Below, piece after piece: positions 48,463 through 63,362 of a stretch of 64,000 nt of DNA. The stretch comes from Candidatus Marinacidobacterales bacterium (GTDB taxonomy: Bacteria > Acidobacteriota > Vicinamibacteria > Marinacidobacterales > SMYC01). The stretch spans positions 5,984,001-6,048,000 of the forward strand of contig OZ250169.1 in the NCBI GenBank assembly GCA_965237955.1. The letters are read 5' to 3'. The number at the start of each line of letters is the position of its first letter. Position 1 is the first letter of the stretch. Position numbers and translations under genes: made by a program. The notes under the pieces were generated by a model. The model was given only the letters and a program-made list of their open reading frames with translations. It was not told the DNA's origin and did not search any database.

Positions 48463-51210
48463 CTATCCGTCGACGTCGTCACCAACCGCCGCCAGCCAAG
48501 CCGAAAACTCTGCATCGCGAAGCTCGTCCGCCAGAACGCTCGCTGCACGAGCTTTGCCTGCGAGCATGAGGGCAAGGATACGAAACCGCGCGAGCTCGGC
48601 GCTCGTCGGATCGTTCATCTGGGCCCGCTCGAGATGCGCTGCCGCCAGCTCGTAGTCGCGCGCGGCGAACGCGTGGGCCGACAAGAGGAACTCGAGCATG
48701 GGATGGTTCACGCCACTCGCTTTAGCCTTTTCGAGGATGACCCGATCTTCCAGATCACTGGCCATGATCATCAGCGGCAGCGCGACCAGCGATGATTGCG
48801 TGAGCACGTGGTGGAGCTCAGGGATGCCCGCGCCACCGTGCGCGAGGTGGCGGTTGATGATGTCCTGGTAGGCGAAGTAGTCGAGTGTGCGCTCGCGTAG
48901 CTCCGGCGGCCAGATGTCCCGAATCCACGCGCTCTCGCTGAACCTGCGACGGGACTCCGATGCGTCCATGAGCCGGAGGAACTCTGCCAAGTCAGCGCCT
49001 CCGTTCGTCTCACTCTGGTGGAAGAGTGCGGCTTGGATGCGATGAGGAAAGTTGTCGCGAAGCGGAAGCGCGTCGCCGGTCCACTCCTCGAGAAATGCGG
49101 AGTCTCCGATGAACAATGCCCCGAGCTGCTCAGGAGTCTCGACCCCGATCGTCGAGAACCCGGTTGCCACGTCGCGCCATGGACGATCGAAATCGGCGGC
49201 GTCGACGGGGCCGTCGAGCCCGCGCGTCCCCACCAACATCCACTCGGTGCCGGCGCCTGTCCAAAGCGAACAGTCCGAGAACGCTCCACAAAAACCGTTC
49301 ACGAGTGACTTCGCCTCACTCGCTTCGAGCTGATACACGGGGAGCCAGTACGTCACCACGCCGCGGGGAGCGAGTCGCTCGCGGAGAAGGGTGAAATACT
49401 CTTCGCTATAGAGATTGACGATGCCGGCGTTTTTCGGCGGAGGCGGCTCTGCAGTAATAATGTCGAACCGCTTTTCGGTGGTTTGCAGAAAGAACCGTCC
49501 GTCTTCGATGTGAACGCGCACCCGCGAATCCTTCAAAGGGTGTCCGTTCGCAAAGATGTCGACCTCGAGGCTGAGATCGATCAGATCGCGCGAGATATCG
49601 ACGACATCGATGGACTCCAGGCTCTTTTGCTCGGTGAGCGCGTTCGCAGTGACTCCGACACCATAGCTAATTAGGAGCGCGTTTTTCGCATCCGGGTTGA
49701 GCGCCATCGGCCAGTAGGCATAGAGCCGCATGTAGCGCTTCGCCCGGTAGGTCGTCGCCGACATCGCGAACCCGTTGGTAACGAGCCGGTGATAGCGCGG
49801 CTCGCCGAACAAGTCGTTCCTCAAGTAGAACGCTGCCTCGGTGACCCCTTCGCGCATCGCAATGACGTACGAGCCGTCGGCAAGATACGGGGCAAGGACG
49901 CGCGGCAGATGGTGGTTTTGCATCAGGCCGGAGGGAAAGAACACGAGGCCGAGAACGAAACCGACGCCCGCGACGCTCATGCCCAAACGCTCCGCACTTG
50001 CGACGCGGAGCTCTCGACGCCGCGCATAGGCGACCACGATGGCGATGGCGCCATAAAGCGCGGCGAGCACGAAGAACGAGCGTTCGAGTCCTAGCCTCGG
50101 GATCAAAACGAATTCCGCCACCAGGGAGCCGAACATAGCACCGAGCGTATTCGACAACGTGAGCCCCGCGGCCGAGAGCGTCTCGTCGCCGAGCTCGTCG
50201 TTGAGGGCCCGTCCGATGAACGTAAACAGGATTCCGGAGAGGAAGCTCACCGGCGCCGCCGAGAGAAGCCCCATCGAATCGACGAAGCTGAAATAGGTGA
50301 CGATGACCACGATTCCCGACGTGAGTGCCACCACGCCGACGTAGCGGTGAGCCTCTTTATCCTGGCGCAGCCACCAGGACGCGACGAAGCCGCCGGACGC
50401 GATACCGAAGAGCACGACCGAGAGCATCAACGAGAAGACAAGACTCGTGCTGTTCCGAAAGAGCAACATGAAACGAAACCACACCACTTCGAGCCCGAGC
50501 AGGGCGGCTCCGGATAGGAATGCGGCACTGAGGATGACGAGCGCGGGCGCTTTGACCAGTGCGCGCCAGGAGACGTGACTCGCGGGAATCTCGACCCCTA
50601 TGGTTTTGCGCGCGAGCAAAATCACCAGGAACGCCGCGGCCACGTTCAAGACGGCGGCAACAACCCCCGTGCCACGGACTCCGAACGCTCCTATCAAAAC
50701 CAGCTCGGCGGAGAGCGCACCGGCGACCGCGCCGAGCGTGTTCCACCCGTAGAGGCGTCCAAGAACGCGACCGAAGTTCTCGTCGTAGCGCGACAATGTG
50801 CGGACGAGCAACGGAAGCGTCGCGCCCATCGCGGTTGCCGGAACCAGGAGGAGCGCAAACGCGATCGCGAGCCTCATGGGGTTGAGCACCCACGGTTGCT
50901 CGAGAAACGGCCGGAACAGGGGGGCCAGCCAGGACGCAAGGCTCGGCAAGAGCAGGACGAGCCCAAGGCCCGTCGCGCCGATGACCAGTTCCAGAATCGC
51001 GTACACCCGCAGCGGGCGCACCCACCGCCCTCCGTGGCGCGCCACGACCAGGCTCCCGAGCGCGAGCCCTCCCATGAAGCTTGCGAGCACGAGACTCGAC
51101 GCCCACACGCTGTTGCCGAACGCGAGCCCCGCCATGCGAAACCACAACGTTTCGAAGATGAGGGCGGACGCGCCCGAGAGAAAGAAGATGAGACAAAGTG
51201 CCAGTTGCAT
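48463..51210 (-). CDS. Fused membrane / spermidine-synthase-like methyltransferase
   Basis: FFLSGASALIFE, LYGWNTLGA, YGVGVT, EDGRFFL and EPPPP...LYSEEYF motifs. Confidence 0.88.
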   Translation of the reverse strand: MQLALCLIFFLSGASALIFETLWFRMAGLAFGNSVWASSLVLASFMGGLALGSLVVARHGGRWVRPLRVYAILELVIGATGLGLVLLLPSLASWLAPLFRPFLEQPWVLNPMRLAIAFALLLVPATAMGATLPLLVRTLSRYDENFGRVLGRLYGWNTLGAVAGALSAELVLIGAFGVRGTGVVAAVLNVAAAFLVILLARKTIGVEIPASHVSWRALVKAPALVILSAAFLSGAALLGLEVVWFRFMLLFRNSTSLVFSLMLSVVLFGIASGGFVASWWLRQDKEAHRYVGVVALTSGIVVIVTYFSFVDSMGLLSAAPVSFLSGILFTFIGRALNDELGDETLSAAGLTLSNTLGAMFGSLVAEFVLIPRLGLERSFFVLAALYGAIAIVVAYARRRELRVASAERLGMSVAGVGFVLGLVFFPSGLMQNHHLPRVLAPYLADGSYVIAMREGVTEAAFYLRNDLFGEPRYHRLVTNGFAMSATTYRAKRYMRLYAYWPMALNPDAKNALLISYGVGVTANALTEQKSLESIDVVDISRDLIDLSLEVDIFANGHPLKDSRVRVHIEDGRFFLQTTEKRFDIITAEPPPPKNAGIVNLYSEEYFTLLRERLAPRGVVTYWLPVYQLEASEAKSLVNGFCGAFSDCSLWTGAGTEWMLVGTRGLDGPVDAADFDRPWRDVATGFSTIGVETPEQLGALFIGDSAFLEEWTGDALPLRDNFPHRIQAALFHQSETNGGADLAEFLRLMDASESRRRFSESAWIRDIWPPELRERTLDYFAYQDIINRHLAHGGAGIPELHHVLTQSSLVALPLMIMASDLEDRVILEKAKASGVNHPMLEFLLSAHAFAARDYELAAAHLERAQMNDPTSAELARFRILALMLAGKARAASVLADELRDAEFSAWLAAVGDDVDG

Positions 51211-51830: not shown

Positions 51831-52400
51831 ATCGCGACTCACGCTAGGAGGGATGAACGCTCGCGGTCCCTTTTGTCTGCGCCTCCGGGCCGTGGGCTCG
51901 CGTCGCCCAGTGATGCCGAAAATACGTGACGACCGAAGATACGGCAGCCGCACTGGCCACCGCCACGGGGAGCTAGTCCCCTGTATCAGAACAAACTAGA
52001 TAAAGCAGAGCTTGCCGAAACCCTTCTAAGTGCATGAATCTTATGAATCTTATGGGCTGGCGAAAAGCCTAACTTTGTATAGTAATCAAAGATCCAGGGG
52101 ACTAGCTCGAACATCAATGCCGACATCATGACGAGAGTCGTGTTCAACCTTCGTACGCCTTCGAACTCATCAGTACATTCCCAAGTCGAATGTTACTGCA
52201 CCGATCTGCTGCCGTCCATCGGCGTCGTCAAGAGGCCGGTCCACCCGAAACCTGCGGCGATGGCGTGCTGCGTCCTCATCGGGTCGAACACCCCGAGCGC
52301 GACGAACGAACCAAGGGCGAACACCTCTAAGAGACGAGAGACGAGATTTTCCCCTGGAGGCCTCCCTGTTCGGAAGACTTTTTGCGGGACGGCGGGAGTG

Positions 52401-52543
52401 AAAACGGAAAAAGGCGAGGCCGGAACACCCAACCACTAGAACACCGAATGTGTTCCGTTCCGGCCTCGCCTCTTCGCTCCGTTCCATATTGAAACGGGAC
52501 CCCCCTCGAGATCGGCCCGTTTCGAAACGGTTTGAACGAACGA
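52401..52543 (-). ncRNA. Putative sigma54-dependent structured small RNA, copy A
   Basis: Paralog of 53601-53731; conserved stems and U-tailed terminator; ends are inferred. Confidence 0.65.
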
Positions 52544-52553
52544 TGGAGAGTAG

Positions 52554-52569
52554 TGCAATCGCGATGCCA
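52554..52569 (-). promoter_or_regulatory. sigma54 promoter
   Basis: TGGCATC-GCGA-TTGCA. Confidence 0.8.
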
Positions 52570-52719
52570 GATCTGGCCGCCGGGCGCTCGATTGCACGTC
52601 CCTGAATTCAGGTCGACCGAGCGTCGCGTTCGAGCTCGCTTCCGGCACGCTGGTCGTAGAAATCTTCCACTATCGTCTACTCGAGGATGCCGCCGGGAAA
52701 TGTCGTCAACGACGAGTGG

Positions 52720-53329
52720 TGCGTGGTGGAGGATCCCGCTCGAGCGTCTGGCGACCAGCGTTCGTCTCATTGCTCGGGCTGGCGACGACCGACGCGCCCC
52801 AGCTTTGCATCATCGACCGGCGGTAGGGTTTCTGCTCGTAGCTCACCTTCACCATGTAGACTTTGCATTCCAGGTCGAAGAAGTTGCACGAGAACGCGAG
52901 CGCACTTCCCCATTGCCCGGCCCCGGTCTCCGTGGTCAGACGAGCGACGCCTTCCTGCTGGTTGTAATACGCCTGAGCCACCGCCGTGTTCGGCTTGTGA
53001 CTCCGGCGGCGCTCACACCTTCGTACTTGTAGTAGATGCGCGCAGGCGTCTCGAGAGCTTTCTCCAGACGTCTCGCACGGTACAACGGTGTCGGCCTCCA
53101 CTGGCGGTAGACATCGAGAACCGGACCGGGAACGTCGATGTAGCGTTCGGTCGAGACCTCCTGTTCGATGAGCGCCATCGGAAACAGAGGCGCGAGGTCG
53201 CTGGGACCAAGGGGCTCTCCCGTTCCTGGATTGAAGCATTGGCTTGACGGGGTCGGGGAGATCGGCCTGGATGTTGTACCAGGCCGTGGGAATATCTTTC
53301 TCAGTCAGCAAAAAATTCGTAGGTTCCAC
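52720..53329 (-). pseudogene. trpB2: TrpB2-like (tryptophan synthase beta-like) protein, frameshifted and truncated
   Basis: PTAWYNI, WRPTPL.RA..LE, YYKYEG, SHKPNTA and TETGAGQWG spread over several frames. Confidence 0.88.
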
Positions 53330-53389
53330 GGCGACCTCCAGGCGTTTTGTTCCTTATAGTTCCGGACCGTGGATTTCGTAAGCGTTCTA

Positions 53390-53510
53390 CGTTATATAGC
53401 TGCTTGCCGACGATGGCGCCGCGATAGTCGACGATCATTGAGTTGCCTCCTCCGGCGTCGATCGGTATTTCCTCTTCCGGATCGACCGCATTGTAAGGAT
53501 CGATCATGAT
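53390..53510 (-). pseudogene. Nitrilase-family fragment
   Basis: PIDAGGGNSMIVDYRGAIVG. Confidence 0.5.
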
Positions 53511-53600
53511 AGAAATCTCCGAGCTTTGCCGATTTAGAAAACGCGGCAGTCGAACTCAGAGAGAATGGGTAGGAAAAGCTGAGTCCCACCAGGACGGTGG

Positions 53601-53731
53601 AAATGAAAAAGACGAGACCGGAGCTCCCAACCAACTGGAACACCGAATGTGTTCCGTTCCGGTCTCGCCTTTACCCTTTTGAAACGGGCCCCCTCGAAAT
53701 CGGCCCGTTTCGAAACGGATTTCCTGAACAG
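53601..53731 (-). ncRNA. Putative sigma54-dependent structured small RNA, copy B
   Basis: Paralog of 52401-52543 with a compensatory G-C/A-U change in the terminal stem. Confidence 0.65.
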
Positions 53732-53741
53732 CCGAGAGTAG

Positions 53742-53757
53742 TGCAATAGCGATGCCA
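53742..53757 (-). promoter_or_regulatory. sigma54 promoter
   Basis: TGGCATC-GCTA-TTGCA. Confidence 0.8.
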
Positions 53758-54070
53758 GAACCGCACCGAGCGACTCCGTCTGGACGGGCTCGGCCACTCC
53801 TCCGCCGAGCGGCGGCGGATTTCGTCGATTGCGTTCAAAACGACACGAATCTCGGTCGGTGGATTGTCGACGCGCTGAATCATGACGAATGTCTCGGACG
53901 GCCAGCGGTTCGTCATGATCGAAGCCGCCGACGAGGACGAGACCTGAATCCGCGTCGTCGTGAACTGGCACGAAGAGCCCGAGCGCCTCATGACCGAATC
54001 CCGCTCACGTTCACGGTGATCTCGAGAAAAGGAGAGATACGGGCTCGACATCTGTACGCCGTGAACGTGC

Positions 54071-55366
54071 CTAGTCTTCCGCATAGTCGGCCGGACTTCG
54101 GAGAGGAAGGCGGATCGTCACCGATGTGCCCCGGCCGGGCTCGCTTTCGACCTCGATACGCCCACCGTGGTCATCGACGATCTTGCGAGCGAGGAACAGG
54201 CCGAATCCCATTCTGACTCGTGATTCCTGCCGGAAAACGAAATCGAATATTTTCCTCACCACCTCCGGCGGCATCCCCGATCCCGTATCGGTGATTCTTA
54301 TCTCGATATCGCTCTTCATCATTTCCGTCGTGATTTTGATGCTCCCCTCGCCTTCGATCGCCTCGATGGCGTTTCGGACCACGTGCATGAACACCTGATT
54401 CATCTGAGCCGAGGCGCAATACAGTGGATCGATCGTGCCATATTCCCGCTCGACAGCGATGCGACTTCCGATCTTCGATTGCAGTAATGCCAGCGCACTC
54501 TCGATCCCCACGTGCACATCGACGGTCTGATAGGTGGCCTGGTCGACACCTGCGAAGCTCATCAAACTGCCGACGATCGTTTCCACGCGATCCGTCGCGG
54601 TGGTGATGGCTTTCGTGGAATCGGAAATGATGTCGAGCACAGCGTCGAGTCCATTCCCCTGCGCGGTTTCTTCGGACACGGTCGCCTTCAGCTTCTTTGC
54701 CGCCTTGAGCACCGTGTCATGCCCAGCGGTGAGCGCACCCAGTGGTGTATTCAGCTCGTGCGCCACGCCCGCTACGAGATTGCCGAGTGACGCCATCCTC
54801 TCTTGCACGAGCATCCGGCACTCCAGCGCCCTCATCTTTTCGGTGTAGCGAAGTCTCTCCTCCATTTCATTTTTGAGCTCTTGCTCCATCTGCATCTGTC
54901 GCATCTTGCCCGAGAACAGATGGGATGCCAGCGAGAGGAACTTCACATCGAGCGCGTTGAAATCGTGGGCCGTCCCGTAGATGAGCACGCTTTGTGTCCG
55001 GTCATGAGCGAACTGGGGACAAACGTACACGCGGGCCACCGATAGTCCCTGAAAGGCCGATGGCAAAGTCGGACGGATCGTGGCAAGTGCGTCGCCTTCG
55101 TAGACGTGCGAGCCCGGTATGTCCAGGATCGCGGGCTCGACATCTCGATCCACTCGAGAAATCGCGGCCTGCCCGCGCTCTCCGTCCACGACCATTCCCG
55201 AGTCCAGGTACCGCCAGCACAGGACATCGCCGATGTACTTCAGCTTCCGGGCGAAGATCTCGGCGGTGGCATCCACGCCGCTCGAGCGATTAAGCTCGTC
55301 GGATAATTCGACGAGCGATTCATAACGGGCTAATCTCGAGAGCTCCTGAAGCGCGGTCATCGGCAC
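54071..55366 (-). CDS. Cytoplasmic sensor histidine kinase (GAF-like, HisKA, HATPase)
   Basis: GVAHELNTPL, NQVF...NAIEA, DTGSGM and GFGL motifs. Confidence 0.9.
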   Translation of the reverse strand: MPMTALQELSRLARYESLVELSDELNRSSGVDATAEIFARKLKYIGDVLCWRYLDSGMVVDGERGQAAISRVDRDVEPAILDIPGSHVYEGDALATIRPTLPSAFQGLSVARVYVCPQFAHDRTQSVLIYGTAHDFNALDVKFLSLASHLFSGKMRQMQMEQELKNEMEERLRYTEKMRALECRMLVQERMASLGNLVAGVAHELNTPLGALTAGHDTVLKAAKKLKATVSEETAQGNGLDAVLDIISDSTKAITTATDRVETIVGSLMSFAGVDQATYQTVDVHVGIESALALLQSKIGSRIAVEREYGTIDPLYCASAQMNQVFMHVVRNAIEAIEGEGSIKITTEMMKSDIEIRITDTGSGMPPEVVRKIFDFVFRQESRVRMGFGLFLARKIVDDHGGRIEVESEPGRGTSVTIRLPLRSPADYAED

Positions 55367-61124: not shown

Positions 61125-63362
61125 TTGTTTGCACGGAAGTTGGCAACGCCCGACACGCGCGCGCGAAACTGGATAGGTTTCTCGCTGGCGCTTTCCGGAC
61201 TCTGCGTGCTTCTGACGCTCGAAGTTTGGGACGAGATCCCCGCAGTTTTTCTATTGTTTGCGAACGCCTCACCGAGCTTCGCGCTCATGGAAGGTGTCCG
61301 GTTCCTGGTTGCGCTCTTCCTCATGCTCCTTCCAACCGCTGCGTTCGGGATCGCCTTTCCGCTGATTCTCCACTGCGCGTCCTCGCGTCGAGACGGTTTC
61401 GGAAAGCACGTGGGGCAGGTTTATGCGGTCAACACCATGGGAGCCGTCCTCGGCGCCCTCTCCGGGCCCTATCTGTTGTTGCCGACGCTCGGGAGCTTGT
61501 CGTCTCTAAGAGTGCTCGGCTCACTACTGCTTGTTGCCGGAGGGCTTGCCATTTACGTCTTGGCAGACATTCCGAAACGGCGCGCCGTCGCCGCCGTCTG
61601 TGTATCCGCAATTCTATGGGGCCCGTTCGTGCCGGTCAGCTGGGACTTCAATGCGCTGAACATGGCCGCAGCCATCTACCTCGGAGACTCCGCTAGCACT
61701 CGCGGCGAGATCCTGTATCTTCGCGAAGACGCGACCGGGGGTCTCACCAGCGTCGTCGAAGAACGTGGGGTACGGACCTTGCTCACGAACGGGAAGTTCC
61801 AAGGTGACAACGCCGAGGAGATTCCGGTCCAACATCGAGCAGCCAATATCCCAACGCTCTTCACGAAAGAGCGCGAGCGCGCGCTCGTGATCGGACTGGG
61901 AACCGGCGTCACGCTCGCAGCGCTGGCCGCTCACGGGTTCGACGAAGTCGTCTGCGCAGAGCTGAGCGAGCCGATCATCGAAGCGGCGCGCGAGTATTTC
62001 GCCGACGTCAACGGCGACATTTTGAACGCTCCCGAGCTTAGGCTCATCCAAGAAGACGGCCGTAGCATCCTGCTCGAACTTCCGGATCGCTACGACGTCA
62101 TCACTGTCGAAGTGTCCAGTATTTGGTTCGCCGGGGTTGGTTCGATCTACAGCCAGGAGTTCTACGAGCTCGCGTCCAGCCGCCTGCGGCGAAACGGTGT
62201 GCTCCTGCAGTGGTTCCCGATCCACCACCTTTCTGCAAGAAACCTCTTTATCGTCGTTAACACCGTTCGCTCGGGTTTTCCCCACGTGAGTTTGTGGACG
62301 CACCGGCATCAAGCTTTCGTGGTCGCGAGCAACGAGCCTCTTCGACTGGATCTCGAGTCCGTGCGCTCCGACCAAGAGCGGACATCGATGGCCTCTTACT
62401 TGAGGGAGCTCGCGTCCGGCTCACCGCTCGAGCTTCTGAGCGATCTCGTCGTGACCGATGACGACATGGGCGGCTTCCTCGACTCCATGGCCCTGCTTTT
62501 GCGAACGCGTCGAAGCGTGGTCTCGACCGATTCCTGGCCGACCCTCGAGTATGAAACGCCGAAGGACGTCCTCAAGAACTTTTCGTACTTCCAGAACCGT
62601 GCCACGTTCAAGCGTTTTCGCAGCGTCGCGCCGTTCCCTTTTCGAGGTGAGCCGACAAGCGGAGAGATTGCTCTCGCGAACGCGGCGTTCAGTCGCGGTT
62701 GGGACGACCCGCGTGCGCTGCCGCGTCTCGCGCGGCTCTGGTCCGAACAACCCGAGCTCTCCGACGCTGCGAGCCAATGGCTCTACGATGAGCTTACCGG
62801 CGAGGACGCATTCGGATCCGACTTCCCATCCGATCCCGTGATCGAGCTGCGCTCCGAGCTCGACGCGTTGAGCCGTCTGGTTCGGTCCGCGCAAACAAAA
62901 ACCGCCTGCGAACCGATCCCTCGCTTTGTGTCGCGCGTCGAGAACGTTCCTCTTCACGTTCTCTGTTTTTCGGGGCAGAGCCTCGACGGAACGAGCCCTA
63001 TTGATGCCGTCGACGGCAGTTTCGACCCCGAGCTCGACAAGGGATGGCGGGTGCGCCCCACCGGCCGACCGGTGTTTCTGGATGTCTCGTTCGAGACGCC
63101 AACCTCCATCGACAAAGTCCATCTCATCGTTAGACCCGTGGACGGTCGCGTCGTCCGCGCGCAACTCCTAGGACGGGACGAGAGCGGCGCTTGGCACCCC
63201 CTCGCAAGCGGCGGTCAGGAGACCGACATCGTTTGCCACGGTCGTCGAAGTTTCCAACTGAGCGCCGGAACACCCAAGCTGACAGGCCTGCGTGTCGAAT
63301 TCCAAGGCGAGGGTAACTCGTTCCGCATCGCTCTCTACGAGCTCTGGGCAGAGGCCCTTTGA
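61125..63362 (+). CDS. Fused membrane/spermidine-synthase-like protein, probably 5'-truncated, with a C-terminal beta domain
   Basis: YAVNTMGA, NGKFQG, IGLGTGVT, EDGR and IYSQEFY motifs; lacks the first TM block seen in 48463-51210. Confidence 0.8.
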   Translation: MFARKLATPDTRARNWIGFSLALSGLCVLLTLEVWDEIPAVFLLFANASPSFALMEGVRFLVALFLMLLPTAAFGIAFPLILHCASSRRDGFGKHVGQVYAVNTMGAVLGALSGPYLLLPTLGSLSSLRVLGSLLLVAGGLAIYVLADIPKRRAVAAVCVSAILWGPFVPVSWDFNALNMAAAIYLGDSASTRGEILYLREDATGGLTSVVEERGVRTLLTNGKFQGDNAEEIPVQHRAANIPTLFTKERERALVIGLGTGVTLAALAAHGFDEVVCAELSEPIIEAAREYFADVNGDILNAPELRLIQEDGRSILLELPDRYDVITVEVSSIWFAGVGSIYSQEFYELASSRLRRNGVLLQWFPIHHLSARNLFIVVNTVRSGFPHVSLWTHRHQAFVVASNEPLRLDLESVRSDQERTSMASYLRELASGSPLELLSDLVVTDDDMGGFLDSMALLLRTRRSVVSTDSWPTLEYETPKDVLKNFSYFQNRATFKRFRSVAPFPFRGEPTSGEIALANAAFSRGWDDPRALPRLARLWSEQPELSDAASQWLYDELTGEDAFGSDFPSDPVIELRSELDALSRLVRSAQTKTACEPIPRFVSRVENVPLHVLCFSGQSLDGTSPIDAVDGSFDPELDKGWRVRPTGRPVFLDVSFETPTSIDKVHLIVRPVDGRVVRAQLLGRDESGAWHPLASGGQETDIVCHGRRSFQLSAGTPKLTGLRVEFQGEGNSFRIALYELWAEAL

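Follow-up and report, generated by a model that had tools for sequence, protein, structure and literature searches.

A modular family of structured small RNA candidates in Marinacidobacterales with a predicted GGUUGGG pairing seed

The Qrr RNAs of Vibrio depend on both sigma54 and Hfq, and the GlmY/GlmZ RNAs of Enterobacteriaceae possess a functional lateral bulge that is read by RapZ. In the available text of PMC4211561, Qrr1-5 are described as several, partly redundant siblings, and a reference cited there names sigma54 and sigma70 promoters for the sibling sRNAs GlmY/GlmZ. The LhrC1-5 RNAs of Listeria, as presented in the accessible part of PMC4132741, are also multicopy and block translation via short repeated motifs, and the CsrB/RsmZ decoys comprise another multicopy group. 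For the Pxr RNA of myxobacteria (RF01812), the portions available of PMC5684412 and PMC5568312 report a predicted sigma54 promoter, a multi-stem-loop RNA of ~110 nt and tandem paralogs in some species, and the direct Pxr targets are given as still uncharacterized in the accessible text of PMC11928866.

The window analyzed here is a stretch of 64,000 nucleotides, in which the sequence-only reading had described two non-coding minus-strand blocks with a common layout as a pair of sigma54-driven small RNAs. All five elements of this layout (promoter box, 5' palindrome with an overlapping stem, linker, long stem with inner hairpin and bulge, and U-tract) were located where it had placed them on the minus strand, both in copy A and in copy B (table 1). 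The two copies exhibit 80% identity across 166 columns (E 1.6e-36) and fold with z-scores of -5.6 (A) and -4.8 (B), none of 200 shuffles being equally stable. The reverse strands also fold well (z of -5.5 and -8.5, respectively), and folding alone therefore gives no strand. The compensatory G-C/A-U swap reported for the outer stem is real, although one outer-stem pair of B is an A-C mismatch.

Table 1. Coordinates of the analyzed features, given on the window unless a host-genome (G000) position or another locus is named
Feature	Position	Strand	Remark
Sigma54 -24/-12 promoter box, copy A	52555..52569	-	Sequence; box kept in homologs
Palindrome, copy A	52517-52530	-	
First stem, copy A	52516-52523/52491-52498	-	
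5' domain (palindrome + G-rich hairpin), copy A	52491..52530	-	Subfamily-specific; helix 1: 82.8% of cells paired
Outer stem, copy A	52457-52471/52412-52426	-	
Inner hairpin, copy A	52439-52455	-	
GGUUGGG bulge, copy A	52428..52434	-	Predicted pairing seed; predicted unpaired probability 0.93-0.99; target ranking
U-tract, copy A	52407-52412	-	
3' module (outer stem, inner hairpin, bulge, U-tract), copy A	52407..52471	-	Family-defining
Predicted RNA, copy A	52404..52543	-	~140 nt; 5' end inferred from sigma54 spacing
Sigma54 -24/-12 promoter box, copy B	53743..53757	-	Sequence; ortholog in locus L159
Palindrome, copy B	53705-53718	-	
First stem, copy B	53704-53711/53681-53688	-	
Outer stem, copy B	53656-53670/53610-53624	-	
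Inner hairpin, copy B	53638-53654	-	
GGUUGGG bulge, copy B	53626..53632	-	Predicted unpaired probability 0.75-0.98
U-tract, copy B	53605-53610	-	
Predicted RNA, copy B	53602..53731	-	~130 nt
PALP-family pseudogene	52706..53329	-	Frameshifted, truncated
Carbon-nitrogen hydrolase remnant	53301..53507	-	Internally deleted; first 8 residues alone kept vs intact ortholog
Remnant of PD40-repeat gene 3' end	53790..53889	-	Earlier upstream neighbor of B
Histidine kinase	54071..55366	-	Neighbor only; absent beside ortholog of B
Copy C	G000 C1:2095840	+	Sigma54 box
Copy F	G000 near C1:2707785	+	Sigma54 box
Copy D	G000 near C1:5762122	-	Sigma70-type promoter
Copy E	G000 near C1:4537302	+	Sigma70-type promoter
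Sigma70-type 5' hairpin carriers	G000:C1:5762122	-	
	G000:C1:4537302	+	
	L211, L212, L215, L216, L230, L233, L235, L237, L238		

The claim of a family new to Rfam was borne out: the whole window produced zero matches at the gathering level of Rfam 15 and, at E up to 10, sub-threshold miRNA, snoRNA and ctRNA models only. The 18 homolog loci likewise gave no Rfam match, and the models for Qrr, GlmY/GlmZ, LhrC, CsrB/RsmZ and the Acido motifs matched neither these loci nor the window. The Pxr model matched 0 of 19 genomes of the host's family in a search that also matched 0 of 14 control genomes and so had no positive control. An identity of A and B with the host 6S or SRP RNA was rejected, as both housekeeping RNAs lie elsewhere in the host genome. 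In the literature on small RNAs, sigma54 and Hfq of Acidobacteriota or on the motif, where subscription papers fall mostly outside coverage, no description of the family was found.

The differences to the described systems extend beyond the models. Unlike Pxr, which lies downstream of pxrK/pxrR in Cystobacterineae, the new family has no conserved neighbor; positions 13-33 of Pxr end in a C-run, according to a primer in the available text of PMC5568312, whereas in the new family the motif is G-rich and the bulge that carries it belongs to the final stem. The Qrr RNAs come from another phylum, and the new family differs from them by its predicted bulge seed, differing 5' domains and two promoter classes. 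Unlike GlmY/GlmZ, it has up to six siblings and a bulge with a conserved mRNA complement. LhrC carries CU-rich sites and binds its targets without requiring Hfq (in the accessible part of PMC4132741), whereas the predicted target of the G-rich motif is a C-rich leader without a Shine-Dalgarno sequence. The proposed mode of action, base-pairing by siblings, is that of Qrr, LhrC and the csRNAs as portrayed in the available text of PMC4211561 and PMC4132741, and with Pxr the family shares the predicted promoter type and the occurrence of paralogs; it is a member of none of these groups by model, neighborhood or motif.

The host genome (G000, 98% complete) belongs to one family of Marinacidobacterales (f1), next to a sister family (f2) and a third family (f3). 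A blastn search with copy A against 60 relatives gave no homolog; homologs were thus found by covariance models only. In a check that the sequence-only reading had proposed, a model built from the two copies found homologs in related genomes, and these covary. This first model (R1) detected full-length homologs in 4 of 18 f1 relatives and 3'-only matches in two more, and the second (R2) reached 13 of 18 f1 relatives, 1 of 8 f2 and 0 of 28 f3 genomes and added a third G000 copy. The 3' module alone (R3), together with a 19-letter pattern, extended the range to 16 of 18 f1 relatives, adding G008, G005, G015, six published f2 genomes and the G000 copies D, E and F. By covariance models and pattern, members are present in 17 of 19 f1 genomes (host included) and in 6 of 7 published f2 genomes, the unpublished G027 being excluded from the family census and alignments and counted only in f2 tallies. 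G018 conserves a truncated remnant only, and no member was found in G003 (84% complete) and G023. The supposed pair is therefore two of six G000 paralogs, two of which bear sigma70-type promoters.

Beyond these two families, R3 on 11 f3 genomes gave nothing better than E 0.017 (one match inspected), and three f3 pattern matches were rejected for lack of stem and promoter. Outside the order, R2 detected no member in 103 class genomes (18 candidates scored per genome, under strict filters), and the R3 matches in 5 of 39 Hfq-selected class genomes and 5 of 150 phylum genomes were rejected, the 11 inspected all being plain hairpins without bulge or promoter; as the class and phylum searches scored only the best candidates per genome, these results mean "not found" and not "absent". 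In a genome collection, the pattern returned 36 loci, of which 12 were scored full-length by R2 in pattern orientation, all in Acidobacteriota records, and the true matches carry record names of Acidobacteriota, Vicinamibacteria and Marinacidobacterales. Viral contigs gave one chance match in one scan and zero in the others. Judged by sequence comparison, this is a real, previously undescribed structured RNA-like family, larger and more modular than first perceived.

The constant part of the family is the 3' module, which consists of a GC-rich, covarying outer stem of 11-17 bp, an inner hairpin very variable in length and the GGUUGGG bulge on the 3' side. In the MAFFT alignment of 24 members, 99.6% of the stem cells were paired, against 35-52% in slid controls, and double-sided changes occurred in 4 of the 11 outer-stem pairs. 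RNAalifold found the same outer stem unaided, and a model-fitted alignment of 23 members agreed on it, with a weaker 5' hairpin (82.8% paired); the relatedness of the sequences inflates the shuffle tests on alignments. The 5' palindrome and the inner hairpin, the latter called invariant in the sequence-only reading, are indeed present in A and B, but they are only subfamily features, and it is the outer stem and the bulge that define the family. GGTTGGG was conserved in 23 of 23 R2 matches, 17 of them outside the training set. A rule-based census of 57 loci, in which GTTGGG was the search anchor and is hence invariant by construction, found 58 modules and missed six loci. A strict sigma54 box stands upstream of 38 of these modules, 11 follow a sigma70-type 5' domain and nine have neither. 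Of the nine, four carry, ~15 nt ahead of the stem, a variant box that keeps the sigma54 spacing, an indication that the module can occur by itself; two others are the second copy of a tandem arrangement. Because the base before GGUUGGG can be U, A, C or G, we rejected a T-box-like pairing with the tRNA CCA end.

Several architectural variants were observed among the members. In L426 (G007) and L427 (G017), two 3' modules occur in tandem behind a single sigma54 box. L230, L211, L212 and L215 harbor a minimal second member, the 3' module alone, located 220-440 bp after a sigma70-type member and preceded ~15 nt upstream by a variant TGGTCC-N5-TTGC box. The sigma70-type 5' hairpin is distinct and conserved, with an A-rich internal loop and no Rfam match, and may be a conformational switch. 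This hairpin and the loop of the 3' module are complementary. Full-length D is predicted to fold by this pairing, with the seed masked, and in full-length C and D the seed is predicted to be partly paired. The 3' stem is followed by a U-tract in A, B and most short sigma54 members; the tract is weak or absent in the sigma70-type and some long members.

Sigma54 polymerase recognizes a -24/-12 consensus, and boxes of this kind lie upstream of most members and are conserved in homologs, the remaining members including those with sigma70-type promoters. The metagenome pattern contained no promoter, so that the boxes serve as an independent test: of the 120 metagenome matches, 15 were preceded by a strict sigma54 box at a distance of up to 130 nt. 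The stems of these 15 were without exception stable and fully paired, and the imperfectly paired matches had no box (0 of 55), at a background of about 0.0005 per 85-nt window. Another 31 matches were paired and stable without a sigma54 box. G000 encodes RpoN and, by motif, about 15 enhancer-binding proteins. The RNA-labelled runs, which consist of contigs, yielded no usable expression signal: those over copy A in X20, X21 and X22 cross the promoter box and may consequently be DNA, and X16 has no listed contig piece over either predicted RNA body. We consider it very probable that the members are transcribed as discrete RNAs: A, B, C and F by sigma54 polymerase with an enhancer-binding protein, and D and E from promoters of the sigma70 type.

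The genes flanking the members are unrelated between genera and often convergent, which marks the members as standalone units, and the comparisons establish conserved promoter boxes, a covarying stem, a conserved bulge and this standalone position. The sequence-only reading had named a conserved downstream coding sequence as the sign of a 5' UTR or attenuator, and none is conserved among homologs. It is thus quite improbable that the members are cis-acting leaders, attenuators or elaborate terminators of a downstream gene: B does precede an intact hydrolase gene in L159, A an ortholog of the 51288-51830 gene in L100, and the members in G001, G010 and G014 a cNMP-MshEN-ATPase gene, but the downstream genes differ between genera and are convergent at numerous loci, among them G006, G011, G004, G009/G013, G012 and most sigma70-type members. 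We regard as even more remote the reading as DNA-level repeats or mobile-element ends, for which one could invoke the wealth of IS elements and MITEs in this genome, the good folding of both strands and the deletions that the region suffered. The low copy number, the U-tracts, the upstream promoter boxes with their single orientation, the G-U pairs preserved when the minus strand is read and the orthologs retained across genera all speak for RNAs instead.

The decay of the neighboring genes, already noticed in the sequence-only reading, was confirmed by the frameshifted and truncated PALP-family gene, which we take to be TrpB2-like, and the hydrolase remnant, both between A and B. The contig of run X2 is identical to the window over 52702-54168, so the gene breaks are real and not assembly errors. 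A strain represented in runs X5 and X8 lacks 52430-52707, and with it most of copy A, and conserves B; the redundancy once proposed for the copies is plausible in this light, although with six paralogs it is not that of a pair. Copy A also has an ortholog, 95% identical, in L100. In L159, the ortholog of B sits between a PD40 gene and an intact hydrolase gene; the window retains the end of this PD40 gene, from which it follows that the histidine kinase became a neighbor by deletion. The suggestion that this kinase provides the input is consequently not supported, as it is a recent neighbor and the L159 ortholog of B has the PD40-domain gene upstream. No conserved neighboring kinase or activator was seen beside family members, and the absence of a response regulator from the window holds, with zero receiver domains among the 72 window ORFs scanned. 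Elsewhere in the window, positions 51973-52106 comprise a 134-bp non-coding MITE-like element with CTAGTCCCCTG ends, present in 116 near-full-length copies in G000, and 48463-51210 and 61125-63362 encode two large proteins with spermidine-synthase-like domains.

The predicted target of the bulge is the leader of a DUF4388 (PATAN) gene heading a DUF4388-miaA-hfq cluster; comparison of orthologs of the hfq region brought out a C-rich site, CCCA(A/G)CC, in this leader. It measures 18-30 nt (51 nt in G014), lies behind a TTGACA/TAGCAT promoter and lacks a Shine-Dalgarno sequence, with the site for the most part 7-13 nt upstream of the start codon. When all 16,384 heptamers are scored for pairing with G-U permitted, GGTTGGG comes first across 19 orthologous leaders, and likewise over all 24 leaders and over 13 genomes, one per genus. 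Among 93 ortholog sets, a small share of the conserved genes taken from nine blocks in 5-6 genomes that had been selected for their contiguity, only DUF4388 ranks GGTTGGG at 10 or better, the next set standing at 76 and the median at about 1,600-2,050. Scores of 5.5 or more of 7 were reached by 17 of 24 leaders and scores of 5 or less by the other seven, and most site changes retain G-U pairing. The predicted duplexes with the G000 leader range from -11.7 to -20.8 kcal/mol, with 10 contiguous bp between copy F and its cognate leader. Between 0.4 and 6% of G000 start windows pair equally well, and the duplex in G000 alone is unexceptional; the evidence for the target is therefore its conservation and not its strength. 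No enrichment of the seed complement was detected near G000 starts. G023, where no family member was found, has a perfect site in the leader. Among other candidates, lpxA, clpC and a DUF6982 gene were rejected for lack of conservation; the last has a 3 nt-exact G000 site, and 2 of its 22 orthologs contain CCCAAC. The bamA site, which ranks 27 and lies within codons 2-3, is still a candidate. The DUF4388 paralogs in G000 are mostly without the site.

That the RNAs act by base-pairing through the bulge appears likely, and we lean, with less assurance, toward the DUF4388 leader as their true target. Recognition of the target was post hoc, the genes compared having been chosen because they have C-rich sites close to their starts in G000; in the five held-out leaders alone the seed ranks 24, with two of the five scoring 6 or more in the window of the search, a third of the leaders match poorly and only 93 gene sets were screened. 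These points would suit base-pairing siblings with targets other than this leader, a reading which we nevertheless hold to be unlikely, because GGTTGGG stays first among 16,384 when each genus contributes a single genome and when an empirical null is applied, and because most leaders retain the site at 8-13 nt downstream of the -10 box.

According to the favored model, six sibling genes, A and B among them, likely encode trans-acting small RNAs, each of which would present the GGUUGGG seed on the bulge of a rigid 3' stem and pair with CCCA(A/G)CC in the DUF4388 leader, likely with the help of Hfq and likely blocking translation. A ribosome footprint covers a site located 7-13 nt before a start codon, and repression is accordingly the expected outcome. 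More speculatively, a type IV pilus/polarity protein might thereby be the meeting point of several signals, and miaA and hfq might be subject to polar effects. Sibling base-pairing sRNAs repressing the DUF4388 gene are, on present comparative grounds, the best reading, which we adopt with modest confidence.

The family shows traits of Hfq-dependent trans-encoded sRNAs, namely own promoters, standalone genes and an Hfq in the host, where hfq follows miaA; computationally, a conserved accessible seed and a conserved complement near a start codon were also predicted. Hfq was found in 14 of 14 f1, 6 of 6 f2 and 0 of 27 f3 genomes and tracks with the family within the order, as read from gene content. 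Likewise, the DUF4388 gene was found in none of 22 f3 genomes, nor beside miaA at any of 20 outgroup loci. The co-loss with Hfq and DUF4388 in f3 is a single event in reduced genomes, and Hfq is common outside the order, where no family member was found. A second Hfq-like gene, G000:C1:7684527-7684853 (-), lies beside smpB and occurs in all 20 f1 and f2 genomes surveyed.

A different function, as decoys that titrate an RNA-binding protein in the manner of CsrB/RsmZ or GlmY, with the bulged helix as protein site and the leader match due to chance or another constraint, seems doubtful to us and yet remains a real rival, because modules occur in tandem and the long type is almost invariant. Like CsrB/RsmZ, the family is multicopy, and in G007 and G017 the module is predicted to be repeated within one transcript, behind one sigma54 box. 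Moreover, the helix that contains the motif is rigid and more conserved in sequence than pairing would demand, the long-type module is near-invariant across genera, and a presumably RapZ-like gene adjoins rpoN in G000. Unlike the hosts of CsrB/RsmZ, however, G000 has no detected CsrA, and the folds of members exhibit no GGA-loop array. Opposite the bulge and within the inner hairpin, both length and sequence are highly variable, and an exact complement in a conserved leader is not predicted by titration.

It speaks against the favored model that a seed is seldom placed in the bulge of a stem. Should the prediction prove right, it would describe a sibling-sRNA circuit with a named target in an uncultured Acidobacteriota lineage, found by comparison alone, and would combine an unusual seed display, from a G-rich bulge in a terminal stem, with regulation of a leader that has no Shine-Dalgarno sequence. 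The DUF4388 protein bears two RLGxxLxxxG motifs, presumably MshEN-like, and has weak matches to PilB/PilF N-termini; Pfam made no MshEN call on it. PATAN, equated with DUF4388 in the available part of PMC12448109, is linked to type IV pilus control in the accessible text of bioRxiv 10.1101/2021.06.11.447907, through which the circuit would parallel myxobacterial Pxr. As a more tentative and rather doubtful extension, the family might form a modular superfamily, in which a seed-display domain is shuffled behind both promoter classes and different 5' domains, the sigma70-type switch masks or exposes the seed, and all members converge on the PATAN-miaA-hfq leader. If true, several signals would be tied to pilus polarity and Hfq level in uncultured Acidobacteriota.

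Some further observations concern the surroundings of the members and related sequences. In genus g2, the members of L025, L026 and L030 lie directly upstream of a cNMP-MshEN-ATPase (PilB-like) gene, and copy C in L040 (1372-1445) and a tRNA gene are arranged head to head. Upstream of G000:C1:5276004-5277785 (-), a further DUF4388 paralog, the leader contains GGTTGGG and a near-complement six bases apart and is hairpin-capable. Finally, structured intergenic stretches with G-rich loops were observed in L043 (G013:C2:968808-969100) and in G000:C1 near 5709300-5709560 (-); the L043 stretch is located behind a sigma54 box, and the two have the GAGCTGGGGGGAT motif in common and may represent a further sRNA family.
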